From Candidatus Levyibacteriota bacterium (GTDB lineage: Bacteria; Patescibacteriota; Microgenomatia; Levybacterales; UBA12049), in contig JACQKQ010000033.1 in NCBI GenBank assembly GCA_016204465.1, forward strand, positions 858 through 64,857: DNA of 64,000 nt, in the 5' to 3' direction. The position numbers and the translations under genes were made by a program. The notes under the pieces were generated by a model that saw only the letters and a list, made by a program, of their open reading frames with translations, made no database searches and was not told the DNA's origin. This document shows, one piece after another, positions 2,950 through 56,832 of the stretch. Each line of letters starts with the position of its first letter. The stretch's first letter is position 1.

Positions 2950-3827
2950 AAATTTTGGGAGTTGGGCTTTCAGGGCTTGTTGGGTCGCGCATTGTTGAGC
3001 TTTTGCAAAACAAGCATTCATTTGAAGATATCAGCTACGACACCGGTGTTGATATTATCGATAAACAAGCAGTTACAAAAGCAGTGCAAGCCTCAAGCGC
3101 ACAAATTATTTTTCACCTTGCCGCCAAAGCAAACGTTGATGCATGCGAAGAAGACAAGTCAAAGGGGAAAATGGGTGATGCGTGGAGAATCAATGTGGAA
3201 GGGACAAGAAACGTCGTTGATGCGGCAGTTACGACAGGGAAACGAATAATCTACATTTCAACGGATTTTGTTTTTGACGGTGAGGAAACGCTGCAGAATG
3301 GCTATAGAGAAGATGCGGTTCCAAATCCCCTTAACTGGTATGCAGTAACAAAATATGAAGGTGAGAAAATAGTTGCAGCGGCAAGTGTCCCCTGGGCGGT
3401 GTTGCGGATTGCCTATCCGTACCGATCTTTCTTTCCCCGCAATGATTTTGTCCGCGCGATACTTACTCGACTACAAAAAGGAGAGGTGGTGCATGCGGTA
3501 GAAGATCATGTCATGTCACCGACGTTTATAGACGATTTGGCAAGTGCAATCAATATGCTCATAGAACGCAAAGCAACAGGAATATACCATGTTGTAGGCA
3601 GTCAATTCGTGACACCGTATCAAGCAGCACTTGCCATTGCCGAAACGTTTAGTCTGCCCAAATCACTTATTGCCAAAACTACGCGAGATAATTACTTTGC
3701 CGGCCGCGCGAAGCGACCCTTTCGTTTGGCACTGAATAATGATAAAATAGAACAACTAGGCGTTAGGATGAGAACATTTGAAGAAGGCTTGCTGGAAGTA
3801 AGATCACAGATTAATAATTCAAAATAA
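2946..3827 (+). CDS. rmlD: dTDP-4-dehydrorhamnose reductase
   Basis: Start taken at the ATG at 2946 (MKILGVGLSGLVGSRI), which overlaps the rmlB stop; RmlD-like SDR fold and length. Confidence 0.7.
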   Translation: MKILGVGLSGLVGSRIVELLQNKHSFEDISYDTGVDIIDKQAVTKAVQASSAQIIFHLAAKANVDACEEDKSKGKMGDAWRINVEGTRNVVDAAVTTGKRIIYISTDFVFDGEETLQNGYREDAVPNPLNWYAVTKYEGEKIVAAASVPWAVLRIAYPYRSFFPRNDFVRAILTRLQKGEVVHAVEDHVMSPTFIDDLASAINMLIERKATGIYHVVGSQFVTPYQAALAIAETFSLPKSLIAKTTRDNYFAGRAKRPFRLALNNDKIEQLGVRMRTFEEGLLEVRSQINNSK

Positions 3828-3900: not shown

Positions 3901-5193
3901 ATGATAATAACGTTCGTTGGACATGGGTATGTGGGTTTGGTAACAGCGGCGGTTTTTGCCGATTTAGGCAACACAGTGTGGGTTATCGGCCACACGCCGG
4001 AGAAAATAGAAAATCTAGAAAAAGGAATTATTCCAATTTTCGAGCCGGGACTTGAAGAGCTGGTCAAGCGAAATGTTAAAGCATCTCGGCTCTTGTTCAC
4101 TCTTTCGTACGAAGAGGCGATTCGAGCATCAAAAGTCGTTTTTATCGCTGTTGGCACTCCGCCAAAACAAAATGGCGAAGCAGACCTTTCGGTTGTTTTT
4201 GAAGTTGCGGAAAAGATCGGAAAACACCTCGATGGCTATACGGTCGTGGTAACAAAAAGCACCGTTCCTGTTGGTACCAATAAAGAAGTGCAAAAAATTA
4301 TTCAGCGTGTTAAGAGCGAGAAGGCAACGTTTGACATTGGCTCTGCTCCCGAATTCTTACGCGAAGGACAAGCGATTAGCGATACTTTACATCCAGATAG
4401 AGTTGTTATCGGCACCGAAACAAAAGCTGCGCGCGACATGCTTGTTGAGCTTCATAAACCAATTGACGGCAGATTCGTTCTAACAAACATCGAAACTGCA
4501 GAGATGATAAAATACGCAGCAAATGCATTCCTTGCGACAAAAATTTCTTTTGCTAATGCAATTGCGCATCTCTGCGAATTAACCGGCGCTGATGGGTTAA
4601 AAGTTTTGGCAGGGATGGGGCTAGATAAGCGGATCGGGAGTCCGTTTCTTTCTCCGGGAGCAGGCTACGGCGGTAGCTGTTTTCCAAAAGACGTGAAAGC
4701 GCTTATTGCTATTGCAAAAAAATACAATTACGATTTTAGGCTACTTGGCGAGGTAGAAGCAATTAATAAATTTGCCATTCTCAATATTGTCAAAAAGGCA
4801 GAAGTGCTCCTTGGGGGAAGTATAAAAAGCAAAACAGTATGCGTGCTCGGTTTGGCATTTAAGCCGGATACCGATGACATGCGTGACGCACCGTCGATTA
4901 CCATAATTTCCGCATTGCAAAAAGGAGGGGCAAAAATTCAAGCATACGACCCAATTGCTATGAGCAATGCCAAAAAAATTCTCCGTGGCGTTACGTACTA
5001 CAACAATTCGTATGAAGCGGCAAAGGGCGCTGATATTGTGGTTGTGGTTACCGAATGGAACGAGTTTCGCCAGCTTGATTTACAGAAGGTAAAACAGCTT
5101 ATGAAATCACCGAATCTGCTTGACGCAAGAAATATCTACGAGCCCCAAAAGGCGCGTAGTATTGGGTTTTCCTATCAAGGGGTGGGGCGATAA
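3901..5193 (+). CDS. ugd: UDP-glucose 6-dehydrogenase
   Basis: MIITFVGHGYVGLVTAAVFADLGNTV N-terminal NAD-binding motif, GGSCFPKD catalytic Cys motif, 430 aa. Confidence 0.9.
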   Translation: MIITFVGHGYVGLVTAAVFADLGNTVWVIGHTPEKIENLEKGIIPIFEPGLEELVKRNVKASRLLFTLSYEEAIRASKVVFIAVGTPPKQNGEADLSVVFEVAEKIGKHLDGYTVVVTKSTVPVGTNKEVQKIIQRVKSEKATFDIGSAPEFLREGQAISDTLHPDRVVIGTETKAARDMLVELHKPIDGRFVLTNIETAEMIKYAANAFLATKISFANAIAHLCELTGADGLKVLAGMGLDKRIGSPFLSPGAGYGGSCFPKDVKALIAIAKKYNYDFRLLGEVEAINKFAILNIVKKAEVLLGGSIKSKTVCVLGLAFKPDTDDMRDAPSITIISALQKGGAKIQAYDPIAMSNAKKILRGVTYYNNSYEAAKGADIVVVVTEWNEFRQLDLQKVKQLMKSPNLLDARNIYEPQKARSIGFSYQGVGR

Positions 5194-9266: not shown

Positions 9267-10785
9267 ATACCAACGATTCATTATAATTGTCATCTTGCTT
9301 GTGGCGTCATTTATTCGTCTGTATAGAATAGACGAATATATGACATTTTTAGGTGACGAGGGAAGAGACGCAATTATAGTATACGATATATTACATGGAG
9401 ACTTTACCCTTTTAGGGCCTCGGTCATCGGCAGCAGACTTCTATTATGGACCAATTTACTTTTATTTCATTGCGCCATTTTTATGGCTTTTTAATTTTAA
9501 CCCAGTTGGGCCTTCAGTTATGGTAGCAATGCTCGGAATTGCAACGGTATTTTTGGTATATAAAATAGGAAAAGAGTTTTTTGGCACAGGGGCAGCACTC
9601 GTTGCTGCTTCTTTATATACAATATCGCCGTTGGTAGTTGCATATGCTCGTTCTTCCTGGAATCCAAATCCATTACCATTTTTTTCGCTTCTTATTATAT
9701 ATCTTGTGTATAAAGCAGTTGTGCATTCATCATGGCAATTATTCTTAGCTGTTGGTTTTTTTCTTGGTATTGCTTTCCAATTACAATATATCTCGATGTT
9801 CTTAGCAATTATCGTTTGTGTATACATAGCCTTAGGGATATATGTTAAAGAAAAGAATATATCTTTGCTAAAAATTAGCCGCTGGTACCTCACTGTACTT
9901 ACCGGTTTCCTAATTGGCTTTTCTCCATTTTTAGGTTTTGAAGTGCTTCATGGATTTCCAAATACGCAGACAATAATAAACTTTTTACTCGGCAGGATTC
10001 CGGATAATAGAGTGATTGTAAATTTTTCACCTATAAACCAGGTGACAGATGCGGCGTTTCGACTTTTTGCAAGATTAGTGTGGTACTTTCCTCCGCTAGA
10101 ACAACTTGAAAGAGTTAACGGTCTTGTGTTGAAACTCTGGCAAATAGGTGTTGTTGGCATTATGGTTATTTCAACCTATACTCTGATTAAAATAAAAAAT
10201 AAGCTGCAGCTTTTTCTTCTCGCGCTGTGGCTTTTTCTTGGTATAGGCCTTTTTGGTTTCTATAGAAAGGTAATATACGATTACTACTTTGGATTCATGT
10301 TTCCGCTACCGTTCTTACTAGTTGGCAATGCGTTATCCTCTCTATGGCGTTACCATAGAATATTGCGCTTTTTTGTCGCAGGTTTGTTTTTCTTCCTTAT
10401 TATTATTAACCTGCAGGGTATTCCATTCCGATCATCACCAAATCGTCAACTTGAACAAGTAAAGCGAATATCGGAGTTTGTTTTGAAAAAGACCGAAAAT
10501 AAACAATATAATTTTGCGCTGATAACCAACGGGAATTCAGATCATGCATATCGGTATTTTTTTAAACTTGACGGCAAAGACCCTATTACCATTGAAACAA
10601 AGGAAAAGGATCCGCAGCGAAAAACTGTTACCAATCAGTTACTTATCATCTGTGAATATCCTTCCTGCGAGCCACTCGGGCATCCTATCTGGGAAATAGC
10701 CGGGTTTGGGCGGGCAGAAATAGCAGCGCAATGGGATGTTTCTGTTGTAAAGGTGTATAAGCTTATTCACTATAGCGATGATTAA
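9256..10785 (+). CDS. GT-C family membrane glycosyltransferase (ArnT / GT39 / GT83-like)
   Basis: Polytopic membrane protein with an early DE-containing loop (YMTFLGDEGRD) typical of GT-C lipid-linked sugar transferases. The start is uncertain: the six-frame ORF begins at 9172 and overlaps the upstream gene. Confidence 0.55.
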   Translation: MAIKYQRFIIIVILLVASFIRLYRIDEYMTFLGDEGRDAIIVYDILHGDFTLLGPRSSAADFYYGPIYFYFIAPFLWLFNFNPVGPSVMVAMLGIATVFLVYKIGKEFFGTGAALVAASLYTISPLVVAYARSSWNPNPLPFFSLLIIYLVYKAVVHSSWQLFLAVGFFLGIAFQLQYISMFLAIIVCVYIALGIYVKEKNISLLKISRWYLTVLTGFLIGFSPFLGFEVLHGFPNTQTIINFLLGRIPDNRVIVNFSPINQVTDAAFRLFARLVWYFPPLEQLERVNGLVLKLWQIGVVGIMVISTYTLIKIKNKLQLFLLALWLFLGIGLFGFYRKVIYDYYFGFMFPLPFLLVGNALSSLWRYHRILRFFVAGLFFFLIIINLQGIPFRSSPNRQLEQVKRISEFVLKKTENKQYNFALITNGNSDHAYRYFFKLDGKDPITIETKEKDPQRKTVTNQLLIICEYPSCEPLGHPIWEIAGFGRAEIAAQWDVSVVKVYKLIHYSDD

Positions 10786-14008: not shown

Positions 14009-15225
14009 AAAACCATAAAAAAGATTTTCCTATTTTCCAAAACAATCCAGACCTCATTTATTTAGATTCTGCGGCAACGAGCCAAAAGCCAAGGGTCGTT
14101 TTGGATGCAATAAATGAGTATTATACTTCGTATAACGCAAACATAAAGCGGGGGATATACCCAATTGCGGAGAAAGCGACCGCAAAAGTGGAGGAAGTAA
14201 GAAAAAAAGTTGCGCAATTTATTAACGCGAAGTCTAAAGATGAGATTATTTTTGTCCGTAATGCGACAGAAGCAATTAATCTTGTCGCATACTCTCTTGC
14301 GAGCACATCCGCCAGCTGGCGGATTTCAAGAGGGGATACAATTGCGACAACTATTATGGAGCACCACTCAAATTTTGTACCTTGGCAACAACTCGCCATT
14401 CAAAAAAATGCTGATTTTCTAGTACTGGATATCGATCAGAATTTCAAATTTCAAATATCAAATTTCAAATATCAAATAAAAAACGCCAAAATTTTGGCAA
14501 TAACGCACGTCTCCAATGTTCTTGGCACAATAAATCCGCTCAAAAAAATGATCAATGATTTACGAACAGTGAACGCTGATCTCATCATTCTTGTTGATGC
14601 GGCGCAGTCGGTGCCGCATATGAGCGTTGATGTGCAGGATTTGGATTGCGATTTTTTGGTGTTTTCAGGGCACAAAATGATGGCGGCAACAGGGATCGGT
14701 GTTCTTTACGGCAAGAAAACGCTGCTTTCAAAAATGCAGCCGTTTTTGTACGGCGGTGAAATGATTCGCGAAGTAACTATTCAAAATACGTCATTTGCAA
14801 AGCTTCCACACAAATTTGAGGCTGGAACGCCGGATATTGCTGGCATTGTAAGCTTAGGCGCTGCAATTGAGTACTTAAATAGTACGGGTATAGAAAATGT
14901 TCTAAAACACGAGATTATGCTCATAAAATATGCATTAGAGCAATTAAAAAATATGCAAGAACTCACTATTTACGGATCTACAAATGCTCGTAAGCGAGGG
15001 GGGGTAATATCGTTCAATCTCAAAGGAATTCACCCTCACGACGTTGCGCAAATTTTAGGAGAAATGGAAATTTGTATTCGCGCCGGCCACCACTGCGCAA
15101 TGCCTTTGCACAACCGCTTAGGAATTCCGGCATCCGCGCGCATTAGTTTCTATATTTACAATGAAGAGCAAGATATAGATAAATTTGTTAATGGATTACA
15201 AAAGGTTCAAAAAATGTTTAGATAA
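14005..15225 (+). CDS. sufS: cysteine desulfurase SufS
   Basis: PLP-lysine motif FSGHKMMAATGIGVLYGK, AITHVSNVLG, active-site RAGHHCA. Confidence 0.9.
   Translation: MKNHKKDFPIFQNNPDLIYLDSAATSQKPRVVLDAINEYYTSYNANIKRGIYPIAEKATAKVEEVRKKVAQFINAKSKDEIIFVRNATEAINLVAYSLASTSASWRISRGDTIATTIMEHHSNFVPWQQLAIQKNADFLVLDIDQNFKFQISNFKYQIKNAKILAITHVSNVLGTINPLKKMINDLRTVNADLIILVDAAQSVPHMSVDVQDLDCDFLVFSGHKMMAATGIGVLYGKKTLLSKMQPFLYGGEMIREVTIQNTSFAKLPHKFEAGTPDIAGIVSLGAAIEYLNSTGIENVLKHEIMLIKYALEQLKNMQELTIYGSTNARKRGGVISFNLKGIHPHDVAQILGEMEICIRAGHHCAMPLHNRLGIPASARISFYIYNEEQDIDKFVNGLQKVQKMFR
14443..14477 (+). repeat. 5 x 7-nt tandem repeat (TTCAAAT/ATCAAAT) inside sufS
   Basis: Perfect heptamer periodicity; encodes NFKFQISNFKYQIKN. 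Confidence 0.8.
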
Positions 15226-24023: not shown

Positions 24024-24929
24024 ATGAATATTATTAAAAATAAGAAAATTTTCTTTGCGATTTCATTATTGGTAATGATTCCGGGAATAATCTCGCTTTT
24101 GCTGTTTGGTTTGAAACTGTCCATTGATTTTACTGGAGGAAGCAAAATAGAATATCAAATTTCAAATATCAAATTTCAAATATCAAATACAGAATTACAA
24201 AAATTAATAAAAGAAAAAGGAGTAGATGTAGGTTCAATACAGACTGCGGAAGGAAATCGATATATTGTTCGAACAAAGCCAATTGATCAGAAAAAATATA
24301 CGGAAGTAACAAACGCATTAAAAAATAAATATAAAGATTTGAAAGAAATTAGTTTTCAGACAGTCGGTCCAACGATTGGGAAAGAAACAACAGTAAATGC
24401 CGTAAAATCCGTTGTGTTTGCCTCGGTACTTATTATTTTCTATATAGCGTGGTCATTTCGAAAAGTACCAAAGCCGGCGAGCAGTTGGCGGTTTGGGGTA
24501 TGTGCTATTGTCGCGCTACTCCACGACGTGCTGGTTGTAATTGGTGTGTTTTCTCTACTTGGATATTTCTTAAGCGTTGAGATAGACAGTCTTTTTGTGA
24601 CAGCATTACTTACAATTATTGGTTTCTCTGTCCATGATACGATTGTCGTGTTTGACAGAATCCGCGAAAACTTGCGTAGAATGCCAGATGTTGCATTTCC
24701 AAAGATTGTCAACGAGTCAATCCTACAGACAATGGTGCGGTCGCTAAATACGTCGTTTACCACTCTTTTGGTACTGTTCACCCTTTTTCTTTTTGGGGGA
24801 GAGAGCACAAAGTGGTTTATGGTTGCTCTCATAGTTGGTATCACAAGCGGCACGTATTCCTCAATCTTCAACGCTGCTCCGCTTCTGGTTGTATGGCATG
24901 AGTGGAACACGCGAGGAAAGTTAAGTTAA
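24024..24929 (+). CDS. secF: protein translocase subunit SecF
   Basis: IDFTGGSKIEY start region, conserved SecF TM domain, follows secD. Confidence 0.9.
   Translation: MNIIKNKKIFFAISLLVMIPGIISLLLFGLKLSIDFTGGSKIEYQISNIKFQISNTELQKLIKEKGVDVGSIQTAEGNRYIVRTKPIDQKKYTEVTNALKNKYKDLKEISFQTVGPTIGKETTVNAVKSVVFASVLIIFYIAWSFRKVPKPASSWRFGVCAIVALLHDVLVVIGVFSLLGYFLSVEIDSLFVTALLTIIGFSVHDTIVVFDRIRENLRRMPDVAFPKIVNESILQTMVRSLNTSFTTLLVLFTLFLFGGESTKWFMVALIVGITSGTYSSIFNAAPLLVVWHEWNTRGKLS
24154..24188 (+). repeat. 5 x 7-nt tandem repeat (ATCAAAT/TTCAAAT) inside secF, sharing an identical 28-nt stretch with the sufS tract
   Basis: Perfect heptamer periodicity; encodes YQISNIKFQISNT. Confidence 0.8.
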
Positions 24930-29144: not shown

Positions 29145-30866
29145 ATGAAGAAGTGGGAGGTTATCCATAAGTTCAAAGTTCAAAGTTCAAAGTTCAAAGT
29201 TAAAGAGCTTATTGATATTCTTTTAGAAAACCGAGGTATAAAAACGGCCAAAGCCCGAAAAGAGTTCCTTAATCCAAAACTTGAGGATGTTACTACAGAG
29301 TCGGTTGGAATTGACGAGGATAAGTTAAAAAAAGCGTTAAGTAGAATTAAAAAAGCAATTCAGGAGAAAGAGCAGATTGTTATTTTTGGCGACTACGATG
29401 TAGACGGTATCTGCGGCACTGCAATTCTTTGGGAAACCCTCCATAGCCTAGGTGCAAAAGTTCTTCCTTACATACCTCATCGTGTTGATGAAGGCTACGG
29501 CCTTTCAAAGAAAGGAATTTCAAATCTCCAATTTCATCTATTCGACAAGCTCAGGACAAGAATGTCAAATGTCAAATTAATTATTACCGTGGATAATGGG
29601 ATTGTTGCAAACGAGGCCGTTCAATACGCTATAAAACAGGGGATTGATGTTATTATTACCGATCATCATGTTCCTTCTAAAAAATTACCAAAAGCACATG
29701 CGATTGTGCATACGACAAAGTTGTGTGGGACTGGTGTTGCCTATTTGCTTGCGAAAAAGATTCTGAAACAAGTTCAGCATGACAACGGCGAGGATGATCA
29801 CTTAGGTCTTGTAGCCTTGGCTACGGTTGCGGATTTAGTGCCGCTCACCAGTAGTAATAGAACGTTGTTAACGCATGGGCTCAAAGTTCTTAGACAGTCT
29901 AATCGGCCCGGGCTTTTAGCTTTGTGCAAAGAGGCAGGTATCAATCAAAAAACTATCGGCACGTATGAAATTGGTTATATTATTGCGCCAAGGCTCAACG
30001 CGATGGGAAGAATAACTTCTGCTATGGATAGTCTTAGGCTTTTGTGCACGAAAAGCCAAGAGCGGGCAAGCCTACTTGCTCAAAAATTATGTTTAACCAA
30101 TAAAGAACGCCAGTTGCTAACAGAAGAGACTGTACTTCATGCGTTTACTGGAATAAGAAATCAGGAATCAGGAACTAAGAAACTATTATTCGTTGCGCAT
30201 GAAACATATCAGCAAGGAGTTATTGGACTTGTCGCCGGTAAGATTGTTGAAGAGTTCTACCGCCCGACTATTGTTGTCTCAAAAGGAGAGGTATATAGCA
30301 AGGCATCGGCGCGATCGGTTGCAGGATTTAATATGATTGAGTTTATCCGCCAGGCCTCAAACCTCCTTGTAGATGTTGGCGGTCATCCTATGGCTGCGGG
30401 GTTTACCGTTGAGACCGAAAAACTTGTGCTTCTTCAGGAAAAACTTGAAGGACTTGCAGAGACACTACTTAATGGAGACAAACTTACAAAAACGCTTCGT
30501 ATAGATTGCGAATTACCACTTTCGATTGCCAGTCGCGACCTCCTCACAGTGCTTGAAGAGCTTGCTCCGTTTGGCATGGGAAACCCGCAGCCTTCATTTG
30601 TGAGCCGAGGTGTGTTTATTGAGGACATGCGATTGGTGGGAAGAGATAAAAAACACATCAAATTTCAATTCAAAAGCCAAAATGCAATCCTTCGACTTCG
30701 CTCAGGACAGGAAGTCAAAATAGACGGAATTTCGTTTGGAATGGGAGAACGAGCGCACGAATTCTCCATTGGGCAGAAAGTTGATATCGTTTATACGATT
30801 AGTGAGGATAAGTGGAATGGAAATACCGCGTTGCAGCTTAAAATAAAAGACCTAAAACCCTCTTAA
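29145..30866 (+). CDS. recJ: single-stranded-DNA-specific exonuclease RecJ
   Basis: DHH motifs (IVIFGDYDVDGICG, ITDHH), DHHA1 region (GGHPMAAG). Confidence 0.85.
   Translation: MKKWEVIHKFKVQSSKFKVKELIDILLENRGIKTAKARKEFLNPKLEDVTTESVGIDEDKLKKALSRIKKAIQEKEQIVIFGDYDVDGICGTAILWETLHSLGAKVLPYIPHRVDEGYGLSKKGISNLQFHLFDKLRTRMSNVKLIITVDNGIVANEAVQYAIKQGIDVIITDHHVPSKKLPKAHAIVHTTKLCGTGVAYLLAKKILKQVQHDNGEDDHLGLVALATVADLVPLTSSNRTLLTHGLKVLRQSNRPGLLALCKEAGINQKTIGTYEIGYIIAPRLNAMGRITSAMDSLRLLCTKSQERASLLAQKLCLTNKERQLLTEETVLHAFTGIRNQESGTKKLLFVAHETYQQGVIGLVAGKIVEEFYRPTIVVSKGEVYSKASARSVAGFNMIEFIRQASNLLVDVGGHPMAAGFTVETEKLVLLQEKLEGLAETLLNGDKLTKTLRIDCELPLSIASRDLLTVLEELAPFGMGNPQPSFVSRGVFIEDMRLVGRDKKHIKFQFKSQNAILRLRSGQEVKIDGISFGMGERAHEFSIGQKVDIVYTISEDKWNGNTALQLKIKDLKPS
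29171..29198 (+). repeat. 4 x GTTCAAA tandem repeat at the recJ 5' end
   Basis: Perfect 28-nt tract followed by the degenerate unit GTTAAAG; encodes KFKVQSSKFKVK. Confidence 0.8.
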
Positions 30867-38141: not shown

Positions 38142-38795
38142 ATGAATAGTAATTTAGTATATGGTTTTCTCGACGAATCTCCTGCCTTAAGTGATGATGT
38201 GCTTTTCTTTTGTGTCGATATTGTTTCCACAAGCGATAAAACCAACAAGCAACTTCAGAATATTATCAAACGAGCAAGAAAAAGAGTTGTCAAAAAGAAA
38301 CTCAAATCTCTCTCCGAAATAAAATTCCATGATTCTGATGAAAGAACAAGGATATACGTTTTAAAAGAAATTGCGAAATATAATGTAAAGATCATTGCCG
38401 TTATAATTGACAAACAGGGAAGGGTGGTAAAAGATACTCCACTTAACTATGGAATTGCGGTCGGTACAACAATTGCTGAAATGCTCTCCGTATATCCGGT
38501 TTTAAATCTTACACTCGACAAAAAATTTACGAAAGGAGAGCAAGAAGTAGAATTTCTGAAATATGCTCAAGAAACAGTTGAAAAACTTGCTCCCAAAAAT
38601 AAAAGCGTTGTTTTCAATCCACCGAAGGACAGCAAGCAAGATAGTTTGTTACAACTAACTGATTTTGTCGCCGGAGCAATACAGGCAAAATATAATAACA
38701 AAGATAATCATTATGTCGAGATTATTCAGGACAAAATTGTAGTTGAAAAGATGATTAAGTGGACGAAGCTCAAAAAAAGAATAGTCAATCCCTGA
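38142..38795 (+). CDS. DUF3800-like protein
   Basis: Start at the ATG at 38142 (MNSNLVYGFLDES) and C-terminal LQLTDFVAGAI motif, both characteristic of DUF3800. Confidence 0.5.
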   Translation: MNSNLVYGFLDESPALSDDVLFFCVDIVSTSDKTNKQLQNIIKRARKRVVKKKLKSLSEIKFHDSDERTRIYVLKEIAKYNVKIIAVIIDKQGRVVKDTPLNYGIAVGTTIAEMLSVYPVLNLTLDKKFTKGEQEVEFLKYAQETVEKLAPKNKSVVFNPPKDSKQDSLLQLTDFVAGAIQAKYNNKDNHYVEIIQDKIVVEKMIKWTKLKKRIVNP

Positions 38796-39026
38796 ACTCC
38801 GATTCTCACCGCCTCTCCGATGTGCATCGGAGTAAGATAGCTAAATTCATAGCTATTTTGCACGGAATAAGACAGTCTTACGGCCATCTAGAGTAGTCAG
38901 GACTTACTTGACTATTCTATTGATAATATTATCACATTTTAGAGGGTTATTCAAGCACCAAAAATGCTTTGAAAATCTTCTTGTTAATGATACTATATCA
39001 GTACTCAAGATGAATTTTTTGAAATT

Positions 39027-51624: not shown

Positions 51625-52932
51625 TCAGGAGGGGTGGACGTAAGTAATTGTTGCGATAATGTTTCCAAGAATAATAACGTAAAAGGCAATTGCTCCAACC
51701 TTTCGGAACGACTGTTGTTTGCGAAAAAGAAGAAGTACAAAAAAGGGCGCAAAGAGAGCCAAAAGGAGTATTCGAAAATATAACGGAGACAATCCAAAAG
51801 GAATTTCATACAAAAAGTGAATACTCGACAAACCGACAAATAAAAGAAAAATTAAAAAAAGCCATTGTGATTTTTCAAGCGCAGTATGCATAAACTGTGC
51901 AACAGAAAGTGCCATCAGTGGAAAAAGTGGAATAAGGTACCAGCCGGACAGACCAGTGCTTGAAAGCGAGCTAAGCATAATAAAAAAGTATACAAGAAAA
52001 GGGATTGCGACAAATTTGTTTCTTTTAATGTCTGTCAAGCTAGAAAAGAGGGCTATAAAACCAAGATAATACCAACCGTCATGCACAATTTTGTTGACAA
52101 CGACCGGCTGGGTAAAAATAAGAAAGAGGGTTTCGGGCCCAACAGGGCGACTCCCCTGCGCGCTTTGAATCGCCCAAAACAAGTTCCAGTCGTATATTTT
52201 TGCGTACAAAAGGAGTAGTGTTGCAAAAAAAAGGAAAATAGCGATGGTGACAAGCGCGTATTTTGGCTTGATCTTTTCATGGATAAAAAAGCCAAGCGCA
52301 GTGAGTAATACCGTAATGCCTAAAATTTTCGTGATAAACGACAGTCCGCAGAGTGCACCAATCAAAATTGCATGTTTTGTGTTCAGCTTATTTCCGAATT
52401 GGACAAATATATAGATCGTTCCAAGCAAAAATACTGTCAGCAGATTTTCGGCAACGACAACGCGCGTGTTCATGACAAAAATCGTTACAGTATTAAAAAT
52501 AAGCAGAGTCCAGATGGTGACTTTTTCGCCGTATACTTTTCTTCCAATAAGATAAATAAACAGGGAAGAGATAACTGAAAGAATAATGGGTACGAGGCGG
52601 ATCGTCTTAAGATCAATTTCTTTAAAAATCTCTTGCCCAAACAATAACGACCATCCGCCAACAAGAAGGCCGTAGAGCGGTGGGTGGTCAAAGTACGGCT
52701 GCACCATAGGAAAGTAGATGCCGTCAATTGTGAGGTCAAACTTTTCTGTGTACGCAGGGAATGACGACCAAGAGATCGGTACGCCGTTGGTTAAAAGGCT
52801 TACGCCAAGAAATGAATATGTATATTCATCGCTTGTAGCTCCGCGCTGGGGATACAAGGTATAGTCATCAAGGCGCAAAAGAAGGCTAAGAAAGAGGATT
52901 ATTCCAACCAGAAGTACATGGAGCTTTGTCAT
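51625..52932 (-). CDS. GT-C family membrane glycosyltransferase (GT39/PMT-like)
   Basis: 12-TM protein with an early DDY/DE loop (RLDDYTLYPQRGATSDEYTYSF) typical of PMT_2/ArnT-like enzymes. Confidence 0.55.
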   Translation of the reverse strand: MTKLHVLLVGIILFLSLLLRLDDYTLYPQRGATSDEYTYSFLGVSLLTNGVPISWSSFPAYTEKFDLTIDGIYFPMVQPYFDHPPLYGLLVGGWSLLFGQEIFKEIDLKTIRLVPIILSVISSLFIYLIGRKVYGEKVTIWTLLIFNTVTIFVMNTRVVVAENLLTVFLLGTIYIFVQFGNKLNTKHAILIGALCGLSFITKILGITVLLTALGFFIHEKIKPKYALVTIAIFLFFATLLLLYAKIYDWNLFWAIQSAQGSRPVGPETLFLIFTQPVVVNKIVHDGWYYLGFIALFSSLTDIKRNKFVAIPFLVYFFIMLSSLSSTGLSGWYLIPLFPLMALSVAQFMHTALEKSQWLFLIFLLFVGLSSIHFLYEIPFGLSPLYFRILLLALFAPFFVLLLFRKQQSFRKVGAIAFYVIILGNIIATITYVHPS

Positions 52933-52982
52933 ACATCATATTCTAGCAGAATGGGCTTAAATTTGATAAAATCAAAGCAGAT

Positions 52983-53056
52983 TGCCGGATCATCTAATGG
53001 TAGGATAGAGGACTCTGAATCCTTTCATCTAGGTTCGAATCCTAGTCCGGCAGCCA
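52983..53056 (+). tRNA. tRNA-Gln (anticodon CUG), CCA encoded
   Basis: Manual cloverleaf: 7-bp acceptor TGCCGGA/TCCGGCA, anticodon stem GAGGA/TCCTT with loop CTCTGAA, T-arm CTAGG-TTCGAAT-CCTAG, discriminator G then CCA. Confidence 0.75.
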
Positions 53057-53059
53057 GTA

Positions 53060-53345
53060 AGAATTGGAAAGAGGTTGGGAGGTAGCGCTTTCCGCGCCTG
53101 CTTTACACTGAGCGGAGTCGAAGTGCTCCGCGGAAAGTGCGTCAAACCTGCCTGCCGGCGAGGCAGGTCCGCCTTTCTTGAAACTTGCGGACAACCGCCG
53201 GAAAAAGAAGAAGGGAAAAACGCAAAAATTTTTTAAGGAACTCAGTATTTCAAATGGCCGTCCTGGTGTGCTCAAACCCTTTCGGATCTGTCCAAAGACG
53301 GCCATTAAAAAACCGAAAGGAAAAGTTTGAGCACGGTTTTACTAT
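53060..53345. ncRNA. GC-rich, highly structured segment (nested long hairpins plus a pseudoknot-capable pair of 9-10 bp helices): candidate ncRNA, attachment-site scar or bidirectional terminator complex
   Basis: The complementarities are visible in the sequence: 53085-96 with 53129-40, 53254-62 with 53297-305, and 53268-85 with 53313-34. GC is much higher than in the flanks. The ORFs on both strands have non-protein-like composition. Confidence 0.35.
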
Positions 53346-53449
53346 ATGGGGAAAAATGAAGAAAAACAAGAAAACATTGTATATCAAACTAGTAATTTAA
53401 ATCTTATTTCGCCAAGACATGAAATAAAATCTTAATTTAGAATAAAAAG

Positions 53450-53854
53450 TTACCAAGAATAGTTAAATTTCTTTAAAATTGCCCCTAAATTTTTATCTAT
53501 AATAGATTTAGCCTCTTCTTTTGTAATCGCATCTACAGCTCTTTTGTTTGCGGCTTCAGCTTCTAAATATCTCATTACTCGACTTTTTACCATAAGCATT
53601 CTATAATTATTATATATCTCTCTAAAGCAATAATTTATGGCAGAATTCCTAGCTGGATACCAACCGCTATCTATCGCTTGACTCATAAACTTCTTTTTCC
53701 AATCAGGTGTTTTTTTCTCAAGCTCGCAGTCTATAATATGAAGCGCAGTATAAAAGGCAAGAGTAACCTGCCAATCTCTATAATCACTTTTTGTATTTAA
53801 CAATAAGGAATAATTATGTTTCGCTTGCTGTTCATGTATATAAGCATCTGCCAT
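53450..53854 (-). CDS. hypothetical protein (island cassette, gene 3 of 3)
   Basis: 134-aa ORF in a strongly AT-rich block, overlap-coupled to the upstream gene; no recognisable motif. Confidence 0.45.
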   Translation of the reverse strand: MADAYIHEQQAKHNYSLLLNTKSDYRDWQVTLAFYTALHIIDCELEKKTPDWKKKFMSQAIDSGWYPARNSAINYCFREIYNNYRMLMVKSRVMRYLEAEAANKRAVDAITKEEAKSIIDKNLGAILKKFNYSW

Positions 53855-53855
53855 T

Positions 53856-54419
53856 TTATTTTTCGAAAATTAAAACATTATCTGAATGGGTATTGAAAGA
53901 ATCTTTTAAATAATAATTAAAATTTATTGGAAGGTTTAGTATGTTTAATAATTGTTTTTCATATTCAAAAAAAATCTCATATTGCTCATCTAAAATATTT
54001 TCGCAATTAAGAACAACATCCACATTTATATAATAAGAGATTTGATTTAAATAAATTTTTTGTACCTTATCAGATAAGGAATATCTTTTAACAATTTCTA
54101 CGGACGGTCTTTTTTCTGAATCTTGATTTGGTAAAAAAGGCGAAATAACTAGTTCGTTCGCGTAGCTTAACCAAATACACGTAGGCGTATTTACTTTTTT
54201 GTGTAGATAAATCTTTGGGGTTTGAGTACTAAATTTCATATTTATTGAAATCCAAGATGGACTAAAAGATTCATCAACTAAATTATAAAGTTTATCTAAT
54301 TGAAGACTTTTAATTTTTGTAACTTGATTGCTTGAAAAAGAAACCTCTTGAGCAGTTTTATCTTTTTCTGTCAACTCATTTAATCCATCTTGTGGTTGTG
54401 TATATGTTTGGTTATACAT
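53856..54419 (-). CDS. hypothetical protein (island cassette, gene 2 of 3)
   Basis: 187-aa ORF, AT-rich, with 8-nt overlap with gene 1 and a 1-nt gap to gene 3. Confidence 0.45.
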   Translation of the reverse strand: MYNQTYTQPQDGLNELTEKDKTAQEVSFSSNQVTKIKSLQLDKLYNLVDESFSPSWISINMKFSTQTPKIYLHKKVNTPTCIWLSYANELVISPFLPNQDSEKRPSVEIVKRYSLSDKVQKIYLNQISYYINVDVVLNCENILDEQYEIFFEYEKQLLNILNLPINFNYYLKDSFNTHSDNVLIFEK

Positions 54420-55134
54420 AATATTTTATATTTTTTGTAATATATCTCAGCATAGAATTATAAAACTTGTTTATTTCATCATTTGTGTAAGATTTACCAT
54501 CTTCAATAATTGTATTTATGTCATTACTTATCAAAACATTTGTTTTATTTTTATCGTGTTTCTGTGCGATTATTCTAATCCAATTGTTAATACTAAATCC
54601 ATCGACAGTTTCTTTATTAAACATATGAATTTGTCCTTCTAATAGTTTCTCTTTATACTTAAATGACTTACCAAAGTAACTAAGGATATATTTAATACCA
54701 TCATCTTTTTCTAAGCTCATATCCACTATCAAACCAAGCCTATTAATACTTGCAGAAAATTTTTGCATCACAATTTCTTCAATTATCTTAATAGTTTTCA
54801 AAGTTTCTTGTGTAAATTCATTATAAAGTCTACTGCCTTGTTCTTTATTGCCGTAAAAAAAATCAATTCTTTGCGGTGCCACAATTAATGAGTATTCTTC
54901 GTTTTTACTTCTTAGAATAATTCTTGGAATATCAGAAGGAGCATCATCTGGTATTGGCATTATAAGAGGATCTCCATCTAACAAAGATAAAGATTTTTTT
55001 AAAGAATTTGCTAATTCTAGTTTATCTGTAAGATTCATTGAGGCAAGAAAGAATGCTATTCGTGCGTTTTTAACGGAATTCATAATGATTACTGCCTCCA
55101 TTTGGATTATAATGGTGTCAAAGACACAAGTCAA
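54412..55134 (-). CDS. hypothetical protein (island cassette, gene 1 of 3)
   Basis: 240-aa ORF (internal candidate start MNSVKN at about 55083), AT-rich, divergent from the HNH gene. Confidence 0.45.
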   Translation of the reverse strand: MTCVFDTIIIQMEAVIIMNSVKNARIAFFLASMNLTDKLELANSLKKSLSLLDGDPLIMPIPDDAPSDIPRIILRSKNEEYSLIVAPQRIDFFYGNKEQGSRLYNEFTQETLKTIKIIEEIVMQKFSASINRLGLIVDMSLEKDDGIKYILSYFGKSFKYKEKLLEGQIHMFNKETVDGFSINNWIRIIAQKHDKNKTNVLISNDINTIIEDGKSYTNDEINKFYNSMLRYITKNIKYYV

Positions 55135-55175
55135 TTAGAATGATTTATACCGCGAGTGAAATCAGAAAATAAATT

Positions 55176-55904
55176 ATGGATTTTAAGTTTGAAAGAACAA
55201 GAGTAGATAAAATTCCAAGAGAGAAAATTATTGATGAGCTTGCAAAGGTATCAGAAACATATAATCATACTCGTTTTACCTCGAAAGAATTTCTAAGAAA
55301 TGCCTCTATTGGTCATCAAACAGTATTTCGAGAGTTTGTAACCTGGGATGCGGCGATGGATTGTTTAACAGATTATTTGAAACAAAAAAATATTACACTA
55401 AAACCAAGAACAAAACCAAAAAGAAAAGACGCTTACACCCAAAAACAAATTTTTGATGAGATGCAAAGAATTTGGAGCCAAATTGGACATCGCCCTTCAA
55501 AAATAGAATGGGAACAGACAAATCCTAAAATAAATTACAACACAGTCAGACGCCATTTTAATGGATGGACGAACGCTTGTCTAAGATTTATTGAGTACAT
55601 AACAGGTGAAAATAATATTGTTGAAAATATTGATGCTTCGGTAGAAAAAATAAATATGGATAAAAACAGGATTATATATAAACCAGAAGATAATAGAACA
55701 ATTCCATTAGGTACAAGATTAAAAATCTTAGCAAGAGATAATTTTCGTTGTGTATATTGTGGCAAAAGTCCGTCTACAGATATTGGTACAAAACTTCATA
55801 TTGATCATATCATTCCATTTTCGAAAGGTGGAAAAAGTATAGAAGAAAATTTGCAAACATTATGTTTGGAGTGTAATTTTGGAAAGAGCAATAAAAGAAT
55901 ATAG
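55176..55904 (+). CDS. HNH endonuclease with an N-terminal domain of unknown function
   Basis: C-terminal HNH motif RCVYCGK...HIDHIIPFSKGG...NLQTLCLECNFGKSNK. Confidence 0.7.
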   Translation: MDFKFERTRVDKIPREKIIDELAKVSETYNHTRFTSKEFLRNASIGHQTVFREFVTWDAAMDCLTDYLKQKNITLKPRTKPKRKDAYTQKQIFDEMQRIWSQIGHRPSKIEWEQTNPKINYNTVRRHFNGWTNACLRFIEYITGENNIVENIDASVEKINMDKNRIIYKPEDNRTIPLGTRLKILARDNFRCVYCGKSPSTDIGTKLHIDHIIPFSKGGKSIEENLQTLCLECNFGKSNKRI

Positions 55905-56832
55905 AAAGTGGATTTGCTATACTATCTTCATCATGCCAGATATTGAGCCAGGATATATTCCTCCTTCCACTGATAAACCAACCCCTTTTCCTGTAAGAAA
56001 AAATCTATCGGAAGATCCAAAACCAAAAGTAGAACCACTAACTGGCGAAGAGACTGCAAAAGTTATTGCAGAAATGTATGACATACTTGGCCCCACAAAT
56101 GGATGTATATTGGTAAATCCTAACACAGTGCTTGCAGTAGCAGGGTTAAAGGGAAATGCAGACCTACCTTCTCCATTGCTTAACGATGAAGAAGCAGAGA
56201 AAATTGATATGCTGAATAGGCAAATGGAATCTCATGGAGTACATCTAGGATATCCTCGTAATTATAGAGAAAGGCTAGTAACACAACTTAGTTTTGAAAG
56301 TCTTCGAGGCATAGAATATAAATCACGACAAACAAAACTCCCAGGTTACTTTCCGTATGATAGTGGTACTGGCAGACAGGGATTACGTGAATGGCAAATG
56401 AGAGTCCAAAGAAACATACGAAAGATAAATAGAGATGGAAGACTCTCTGATGAAACAGTAGGTATTTATGATGACGGGGTCAGACTTGGGTATCCTGATC
56501 AAGCAATCAGAGACTTTGCTGATTGGTATGAAGAAGGTACACAGGATCATAGTAAGTTAACAGAAGCAGATATATTATCAGTAAACACATATGCGCAACA
56601 ATACAAAGGTAATGTTCCTGAATTTGATTACTATCCATCATCAGCAGAAAATCCAGAAATACAAGAATATATTAGAAAAGCACGAGAAACACTTGATGGG
56701 TTTTACAAAAGTGAGTGGCACATAAAAACAGCCCAAGATCCAAGTTTTCTTGCCGCAAGGAAAGAAAGAGATGAAAGACATGAACGTAATGTAGCGCACT
56801 TGCAAACAGAAAGAGAACAAAAAAGACAATAA
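55879..56832 (+). CDS. hypothetical protein
   Basis: 317-aa ORF overlapping the HNH gene end; no recognisable motif. Confidence 0.35.
   Translation: MERAIKEYRKWICYTIFIMPDIEPGYIPPSTDKPTPFPVRKNLSEDPKPKVEPLTGEETAKVIAEMYDILGPTNGCILVNPNTVLAVAGLKGNADLPSPLLNDEEAEKIDMLNRQMESHGVHLGYPRNYRERLVTQLSFESLRGIEYKSRQTKLPGYFPYDSGTGRQGLREWQMRVQRNIRKINRDGRLSDETVGIYDDGVRLGYPDQAIRDFADWYEEGTQDHSKLTEADILSVNTYAQQYKGNVPEFDYYPSSAENPEIQEYIRKARETLDGFYKSEWHIKTAQDPSFLAARKERDERHERNVAHLQTEREQKRQ

Follow-up and report, generated by a model that had tools for sequence, protein, structure and literature searches.

A probable recombinase-gene scar joined to a conserved two-helix module beside a tRNA-Gln gene of a Levyibacteriota bacterium

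The DNA analysed here (the window) comprises 64,000 nucleotides (nt) of contig JACQKQ010000033.1 from a Candidatus Levyibacteriota bacterium, in which an intact tRNA-Gln(CTG) gene is followed by a GC-rich segment of about 290 nt and then by an AT-rich island (Table 1). A gene for a PMT_2 glycosyltransferase neighbours the segment, and its product is 100% identical to a protein of a Candidatus Levybacteria metagenome-assembled genome. A preliminary description, made by reading the sequence alone, had treated these 290 nt as one densely paired unit and offered it as a non-coding RNA (ncRNA), an attachment site or recombination scar, or a bidirectional terminator. The comparisons below indicate that the segment is probably a composite, whose left half would be the scar of a large serine recombinase (LSR) gene and whose right half would be a conserved two-helix module.

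The observations from which that description started are sound. The segment does lie directly 3' of the tRNA, and its GC content is above that of its flanks, with 0.56 at positions 53000-53199 against 0.26-0.29 immediately downstream and approximately 0.41 over the whole window. All of the complementarities that were listed exist, within 2 nt of the positions given for them: GCGCTTTCCGCG (53085-53096) pairs with CGCGGAAAGTGC (53129-53140) with one G.T pair, ACCTGCCT (53146-53153) with AGGCAGGT (53161-53168), and ATGGCCGTC (53254-53262) with GACGGCCAT (53297-53305), followed by the two parts of what we call helix B in Table 1, while GTCCGC/GCGGAC and CCGGCG/CGCCGG are visible directly in the sequence. 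The A-B-A'-B' order assigned to the last two helices is likewise correct. Folding of the full 289 nt yields -98.2 kcal/mol for the plus strand, against -83.3 +/- 5.0 kcal/mol for shuffled sequences (z = -3.0), and the minus strand gives z = -3.03; the near-equal values mean that pairing exceeds chance, yet carry no indication of strand.

Searches for known structured RNAs returned little. In a scan of the segment and the tRNA with Rfam 15 at gathering thresholds, tRNA was the sole passing family, in agreement with the earlier failure to recognize RNase P, SRP, tmRNA or 6S RNA by eye, and ARAGORN reported no tmRNA. With the limit relaxed to E <= 10, the only additional model aligning to the segment was the potC motif (RF01751; minus strand, 53262-53340, E = 0.12), which shares a long hairpin and a U/A-rich interior with the sequence; at 22 bits against a gathering threshold of 44, and with no potC context, the module is not a member of that family. 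On neither strand of 52700-53700 is there a terminator-like site, for which a U run had to stand directly behind a GC-rich stem (5-20 pairs, loop of 3-8 nt).

Homologues in other genomes indicate where the left half comes from. The minus-strand open reading frame (ORF) 53042-53305 was compared with a protein database, on the premise that similar ORFs had been called elsewhere; 24 homologues came to light, from Shapiro-, Levy-, Woese- and Gottesmanbacteria, with RRLSASFKKGGFDALSAE..AGAESATSRPLSNSYWL in common. At the DNA level, a block of approximately 125-150 nt is about 90% identical to window 53052-53205 at five loci (L153, L155, L156, L157 and L158). The longer ORFs (P0132 and P0147-P0157) extend upstream as ..LDRLLEGYLDK..WLEPF..KIARAKNSCHDLSIMAKTVGSNFFLKDRRLS, that is, into the LSR coiled coil and Zn_ribbon_recom. 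In P0157 the zinc-ribbon domain PF13408 scores 29.9 bits against a cutoff of 25.3, and the alignment of this ORF with P0147 (46% identity, E = 3e-39) runs through the tail, past which P0157 reads into a downstream sequence other than that of P0147. The residues that follow ..YWL in many of the ORFs (PDLDSNQ or RDLDSNQ) are a tRNA T-arm translated antisense.

At the locus itself (52900-56000), tblastn with recombinase fragments found the tail as the sole recombinase part, and the catalytic Resolvase and Recombinase domains are not present, which makes this a remnant rather than a gene; a profile of the tail found no second copy in the window. Because the homologous ORFs run into LSR domains and the tail starts right after the tRNA CCA, the GC-rich left half represents, as far as sequence can tell, the terminal ~49 codons of a recombinase gene, and this gene shares its 3' end with the attachment arm of an element at the tRNA. 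The body of the gene, we infer, was lost by deletion in situ. The opinion that the ORFs here look non-coding was thus half right, the minus-strand ORF 53042-53305 being the remnant of a real coding sequence.

The helices of this half behave accordingly in alignments of its copies. Across six copies of the tail, three testable helices with 20 pairs show 0 pairs changed on both sides, 9 unpaired cells and 2 G.U cells, and a seventh copy, the one beside the tRNA in L157 (L157b), rewrites the main palindrome. Variable sites are distributed 7/7/10 over the codon positions, without third-position bias, a spread that fits a decaying pseudogene; indels in the tail are all multiples of 3 (21, 24 and 24 nt). 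We therefore read the left half as an integration scar and not as an RNA, with helices that appear not to have been selected as RNA structure.

Most helices of the GC-rich part stem instead from two in-frame palindromic insertions together with palindromes within the coding tail. The 24-nt insertion, which contains the GGAG/CTCC hairpin, sits at the loop of the main palindrome of the tail; it is present in the window, L153 and L155 and absent from L156, L157 and L158, and at exactly the same spot P0124, P0127 and P0149 carry an alternative 24-nt insert, APYVPQGK. The CCTGCC/GGCAGG hairpin arises from the 21-nt insertion, which also contains the CCGGCG arm of the supposed pseudoknot and is absent from all six other tail copies (6/6). 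The same 21-mer occurs in 17 unrelated contigs of a metagenome scan (L130-L146), in contexts that share only ~26 nt, and has the look of a very small palindromic insert that recurs or moves. The palindrome reads CCTGCCTGCCGGCGAGGCAGG in the window and ACCCGCCTGCCGGCGAGGCAGGTCCGCC in other contigs; one contig (L137) holds several variants (1278-1302, 3227-3249 and 10588-10619), and one copy apparently lies inside a coding N-terminus (..MAPPAGGPASPAGGLEF..).

The tRNA end marks the border of the element. In the window, in L156, in L158 and in the first of two L157 copies, the tail begins exactly after the tRNA-Gln CCA, at a junction of the form ..(A/G)CCA followed by GTAAGAATT.., with tRNA-Gln(CTG) in the window and L158 and tRNA-Gln(TTG) in L156 and L157. 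The element-side sequence of the attachment (att) junction therefore starts at the same tRNA position in independent genomes, from which tRNA-Gln is predicted to be the integration target and its 3' end the left junction. Furthermore, L157 has two tails, one at tRNA-Gln and the other 3 kb away and still preceded by ..CAGCCA, as would fit stacked integrations. The strains L156 and L159 are nearly the same, apart from the tail cassette and a gradient of single-nucleotide polymorphisms in the adjacent recombinase fragment. Both this difference and the double tail of L157 fit repeated integration followed by deletion. Each strain (L156 1400-2400, L159 2150-3150) has a ~125-nt tail cassette between a recombinase fragment and a tRNA-Gln(TTG) that the two have in common, but the cassettes differ, and one supplies an encoded CCA while the other does not.

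The right half led to an intact relative. An exhaustive protein search with the plus-strand ORF 53185-53400 yielded two ORFs (P0161 and P0162), one of which gave access to locus L160. This locus encodes a full-length LSR of 533 amino acids (aa) with Resolvase, Recombinase and Zn_ribbon_recom, which aligns through ..AKTVGSNFLLFNKRLAASFKRGFDA.. and whose ORF overlaps a tRNA-Pro gene, running antisense through it. At 4243-4374, L160 carries ~130 nt that are ~90% identical to window 53213-53346, placed ~250 nt upstream of the recombinase start and just past the end of an upstream minus-strand gene, and the A-rich box of Table 1 is present there a second time, inverted, at 21-37 nt from the start codon of the recombinase. 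Searches of IMG/VR, GenBank phages and PLSDB plasmids gave no copy of either the tail or the module, and viral contigs yielded no relative of the L160 recombinase. Separately, L160 holds a 119-nt inverted repeat of its recombinase tail (2503-2621 and 4038-4156, 91% complementary) that flanks the full-length recombinase gene, and stacked integrations, an attP-type junction or an invertible segment might account for it; the second 119-nt copy is joined to a sequence coding for VVYKKVRTSF, which recurs after tails in non-tRNA contexts (P0122, P0125, P0127, P0146 and P0151).

A third copy of the module, in L157, was found by a profile search and then by a covariance model, which scores the window at 169.9 bits, L160 at 167.2 and L157 at 59.6 (E = 1.6e-9) and finds no further copy in the 256 kb of loci examined. 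The L157 copy is diverged and lies inside the island between the two tails. The A-rich box precedes the helices in all three copies and also follows the tail in L155 and at the second L157 tail, and homology of the module stops sharply at ..ACTATA.

Table 1. Features at and around the tRNA-Gln locus, in window coordinates; a blank strand cell marks features given without a strand. 
Feature	Position	Strand	Basis
tRNA-Gln(CTG), intact, with encoded CCA	52983-53056	+	ARAGORN; Rfam tRNA, 59.6 bits
Predicted remnant of the 3' end of an LSR gene, ~49 codons (RRLSASFKKGG..SNSYW), which includes the att-junction arm on the element side	53057-53205	-	Homologous ORFs and DNA copies
Variable in-frame insertion of 24 nt (minus strand: HFDSAQCK), source of the GAGCGGAG/CTCCGC hairpin	53102-53125		Comparison of copies
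21-nt in-frame GC-rich palindromic insertion (PASPAGR on the minus strand)	53147-53167		Window only
Whole conserved module (box plus helices A and B)	53213-53346		~90% identity to L160; covariance model
Conserved A-rich box GAAAAACGCAAAAATTTT, 17-18 nt	53215-53232	+	Core identical in window, L160 and L157
Helix A: AATGGCCGTC (53253-53262) with GACGGCCATT (53297-53306)	53253-53306		3' arm in the loop of helix B
Helix B, outer: GTGCTCAAAC (53268-53277) with GTTTGAGCAC (53325-53334)	53268-53334		Complementarity and covariation
Helix B, inner: CCTTTCGG with CCGAAAGG	53278-53285 with 53313-53320		Complementarity and covariation
4-nt A-rich bulge of helix B	53321-53324		
AT-rich island, GC 0.19-0.35: three minus-strand ORFs and an HNH endonuclease ORF	53450-55904		Composition
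HNH endonuclease with homing-endonuclease-associated repeat	55176-55904	+	

Both helices are retained in the three copies through changes of sequence. Helix A, AATGGCCGTC/GACGGCCATT in the window, corresponds to AATGGCCGCT/AGCGGCCATT in L160 and to AATGGCG/CGCCATT plus two A-T pairs in L157, its core being ATGGCCGTC/GACGGCCAT, ATGGCCGCT/AGCGGCCAT and ATGGCG/CGCCAT plus two A-T pairs, respectively; read directly from the three sequences, its positions 7, 9 and 10 change on both sides, and the 92.9% of paired cells counted by the tool reflects suboptimal gap placement. Helix B has 18 pairs, with 100% of cells paired and 10 pairs changed on both sides, and in L157 its inner 8 bp are wholly replaced (CCTTTCGG/CCGAAAGG becoming GAAATTGC/GCAATTTC), while the A-rich bulge of 4-5 nt and the loop segment CCATTAAAAAA are retained across the copies. 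For both helices together, in an alignment fitted to helix B, 97.6% of the cells of 28 pairs are paired and 11 pairs are changed on both sides; 0 of 500 shuffles did as well, and slid controls were 28-50% paired. RNAalifold independently recovers helix B with 10 compensatory pairs.

In the A-B-A'-B' arrangement the connecting segments measure 5, 11 and 7 nt. Nested folding of the window sequence yields helix B on the plus strand and helix A on the minus strand with similar energies; a pseudoknot that contains both helices and an alternation between them are each conceivable. G.U is virtually absent from the 82 paired cells, so no strand can be assigned to the module, and this scarcity mildly favours a function that needs both strands, or one exerted as DNA. 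Since the small ORF within it is not conserved in L157 and has two frameshifts in the window, pairing rather than a peptide appears to have been selected, and we regard the right half as a conserved non-coding module, apparently selected for pairing in both interleaved helices. By these comparisons it would be a new structured motif, with no match in Rfam, that is tied to LSR elements of bacteria of the candidate phyla radiation (CPR). An attempt to see in the second part of the segment another, older recombinase tail was abandoned, as neither protein nor DNA similarity was significant.

The two halves therefore divide the earlier proposals between them. A recombination scar applies to 53057-53205, the end of an LSR gene on a tRNA with neither covariation nor an Rfam match, and does not extend to the right half; a conserved structure applies only to 53213-53346, where compensatory changes are seen in three copies (11 of 28 pairs changed on both sides, against 0 compensatory pairs in the left half). 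A single 290-nt unit is not supported, as the halves occur separately in other genomes.

Beyond the segment lies the AT-rich island. Among its three minus-strand ORFs, searches of Pfam, PHROGs and PADLOC gave no family match except two weak PHROGs matches (function not known) for one of them; no cargo in common with the L160, L157 or L155 islands was found, and no replication or transfer genes are recognizable in the islands. In this island we probably see what remains of the cargo of the integrated element. Short-read assemblies made independently from at least 6 samples break within, or at the borders of, the tRNA and recombinase tail: the short-read (Logan) contigs with the PMT_2 gene (L001-L006) all end between ~53011 and 53096, and those with the first island gene (L126-L129) end at ~53178-53210, which fits a tail and tRNA common to several co-occurring genomes. 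Synteny followed through PMT_2 revealed no close relative among genome contigs, only orthologues of ~50% identity with other neighbours and without the tRNA, and a genome scan with the 3' 28-mer of the tRNA was uninformative, matching many unrelated phyla.

A history that would join these observations begins with the 3' end of tRNA-Gln as an integration hot spot for LSR-carrying mobile elements in Microgenomates, which belong to the CPR. When such an element is intact, its recombinase gene would point antisense towards the tRNA, with the last ~45 codons overlapping the attachment arm and reading on into the tRNA; L160 shows this antisense read-through for tRNA-Pro, and fragments show it for tRNA-Gln. 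In the window, only the tail would be left, the rest of the gene having been deleted, and the deletion would have brought the tail directly against the A-rich box and the two-helix module, which in L160 separates the recombinase from the cargo genes upstream. Such a place between genes upstream and recombinase, common to the window and L160, suggests a structure that insulates or switches in cis, and our best guess is that the module stands between cargo transcription and the recombinase gene as an insulator, terminator or switch that depends on its structure and is possibly read on both strands. Taken as a whole, an LSR scar joined to such a module is the account that we hold to be likely.

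Several observations weigh against this account. The right end of the element and its empty site were not found: no empty-site contig was retrieved, and nowhere in the window is the tRNA-Gln 3' end repeated, although serine recombinases leave only a 2-bp overlap, so that no such repeat is expected. The covariation of the module rests on three independent copies. No full-length recombinase with exactly this GC-rich tail family was found, the 40-odd matches all being fragments of at most 242 aa, many ended by contig ends; the intact example, L160, has a related but different tail family and uses tRNA-Pro. Neither strand has a canonical intrinsic terminator, the U run after helix B is just UUUU and is lost in L157, and the L157 gene that follows the module is co-directional, not convergent, which weakens the idea of an insulator or switch. 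Even as a scar, the tail keeps ~90% identity between distant lineages, and its junction with the A-rich box recurs in the window, L155 and L157; independent deletions would not yield an identical junction, so the short form may itself be a propagating unit.

That last suspicion can be put as a definite alternative, in which 53057-53346 (tail, box and module) forms a miniature, non-autonomous element that retains the arm bound by the recombinase and depends on full-length LSR elements to move it in trans, and would not be the scar of a deletion in situ. The recurrence of the tail-box junction, which is also found in ORFs P0123-P0126, the sharpness of the unit at both ends and its high nucleotide identity across lineages would suit such an element. 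We nevertheless judge it improbable, because L155 and the second L157 tail have tail and box without the module, the L160 and L157 modules do not stand beside a tail in the same arrangement, the window has no second copy, and the right end of the module has no significant similarity to the P arm. A single free-standing structured ncRNA gene of 290 nt, co-transcribed with tRNA-Gln or adjoining it, is far more doubtful still: it could appeal to folding better than that of shuffles, to the place directly 3' of the tRNA and to the high conservation of the left part, but the halves are found apart from one another, the left half has disruptive rather than compensatory changes and is in frame with a recombinase gene on the opposite strand, two of the helices are lineage-specific insertions, and Rfam has no match. 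Equally hard to credit is a small basic protein encoded by the module (43 aa in L160, MAALVVLKPFRICLKRPLKNRKGKFEYRFTI..), for example a recombination directionality factor. P0161 and P0162 do have this ORF in common at the protein level, and ATG starts lie at helix A in 3/3 DNA copies; on the other hand, the window copy needs two compensating frameshifts relative to P0162, the L157 copy encodes an unrelated 24-aa peptide yet keeps every base pair, and the ribosome-binding site is not consistent.

How the module itself would act is the point on which the more serious alternatives turn. It might be a small non-coding RNA of the element, a riboregulator of recombinase expression or an RNA cofactor, forming a pseudoknot or a two-state switch. 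Compensatory changes in both interleaved helices, the conserved loop and bulge features (the A-rich bulge, CCATTAAAAAA and TGTC), a fold of the module alone with z of -3.2 to -5.4 and the similar energies of the A and B conformations speak for an RNA, and a promoter element might be seen in the conserved box that lies 14-27 nt upstream; we rate it a possibility, though a minority one, given that near-zero G.U among the paired cells is unusual for a single-strand RNA, that no promoter-like site was detected at the box, that the best Rfam candidate is the sub-threshold minus-strand potC alignment, and that complementarity between loops and att junctions never exceeds chance 7-8-mers. The same Watson-Crick pairing on both strands is what inverted repeats in DNA would show, and the module always lies beside recombinase-derived sequence (the tail in the window, a AAAAACTGTCGGCTCG fragment in L160 and L157) and has a sharp right boundary. 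It could thus act as DNA, as overlapping dyad-symmetric sites for the recombinase or an accessory protein or as single-stranded DNA (ssDNA) hairpins of an origin, transfer or packaging-type site, which we consider rather unlikely. Known LSR att sites of the phiC31 and Bxb1 type are compact, at ~50 bp, and do not match an asymmetric bulge of 4-5 nt conserved on one arm only or arms that stand 27-34 nt apart; moreover, the module has no significant similarity to P-arm sequences or recombinase 3' regions, and the islands have no recognizable replication or transfer genes.

The elements to which we assign the left half can be compared with LSR integrative elements of the phiC31, Bxb1 and TnpX type. 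They share the domain set, Resolvase, Recombinase, zinc ribbon and coiled coil in L160, and site-specific insertion at one host sequence without long direct repeats, with the recombinase gene at the edge of the element. Unlike those systems, the present elements insert at the CCA end of tRNA genes, a site classically used by tyrosine integrases; their recombinase ORF overlaps the att arm at its 3' end and continues antisense across the tRNA, and remnants are stacked in tandem (L157), with only ~49 codons kept in the window. Similarly, tRNA-linked islands with integrase pseudogene scars show an AT-rich island beside an intact tRNA, strain-variable content and a decayed integrase, and the present case differs in having neither a tyrosine integrase nor a duplicated tRNA 3' segment, and in a scar whose sequence is unusually well conserved across lineages. 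In itself the left half is a common type of object, the pseudogene of an integrase at a tRNA-linked island, with two less usual traits: its recombinase is a serine and not a tyrosine enzyme, and its ORF overlaps both the att arm and the tRNA.

The module, a structured stretch of ~130 nt with covarying helices that is tied to a recombinase gene in the non-coding end of the element, recalls the bridge RNA of IS110 and the omega-RNA of IS605/IS607; here, however, the enzyme is a serine recombinase and not DEDD or TnpB, and the module has neither loop complementarity to target or donor nor similarity to those RNAs in Rfam or in sequence. The likeness is one of analogy and not of membership, and we know of nothing resembling the non-coding RNAs of the IS110 and IS605 families for a serine recombinase. 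By that analogy the module might be a functional partner of CPR LSR elements, a structured RNA or ssDNA that controls or directs recombination in its directionality, timing or choice of site, to which we give only a very slight chance. Bidirectional terminators resemble it in lying between the end of a minus-strand gene and plus-strand features, as in the window and L160, and in a stem that is perfectly Watson-Crick on both strands; an 18-bp stem with a bulge is far beyond their usual length, a second, interleaved helix is conserved, and no U run follows directly on either strand.

These results remove a false ncRNA candidate, in that a GC-rich, well-folding and conserved stretch beside a tRNA can be accounted for by the coding tail of a lost integrase and small palindromic insertions. 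They document LSR elements of Microgenomates that appear to land at the CCA end of tRNA-Gln (and tRNA-Pro) and to leave stacked scars there, which is of use for the annotation of CPR genomes and for interpreting breaks in assemblies. They also bring to light a small structured motif outside Rfam that seems tied to LSR elements and whose covariation is clear enough to merit a wider survey.

Elsewhere in the window, Rfam identifies a DUF3800-III RNA at 38778-38918 on the minus strand (51.6 bits against a gathering threshold of 43.8), and short AT-rich arrays of heptad repeats (ATTTCAAAT/ATATCAAAT and TTCAAAG) occur at 14438-14494, 24135-24219 and 29167-29223.

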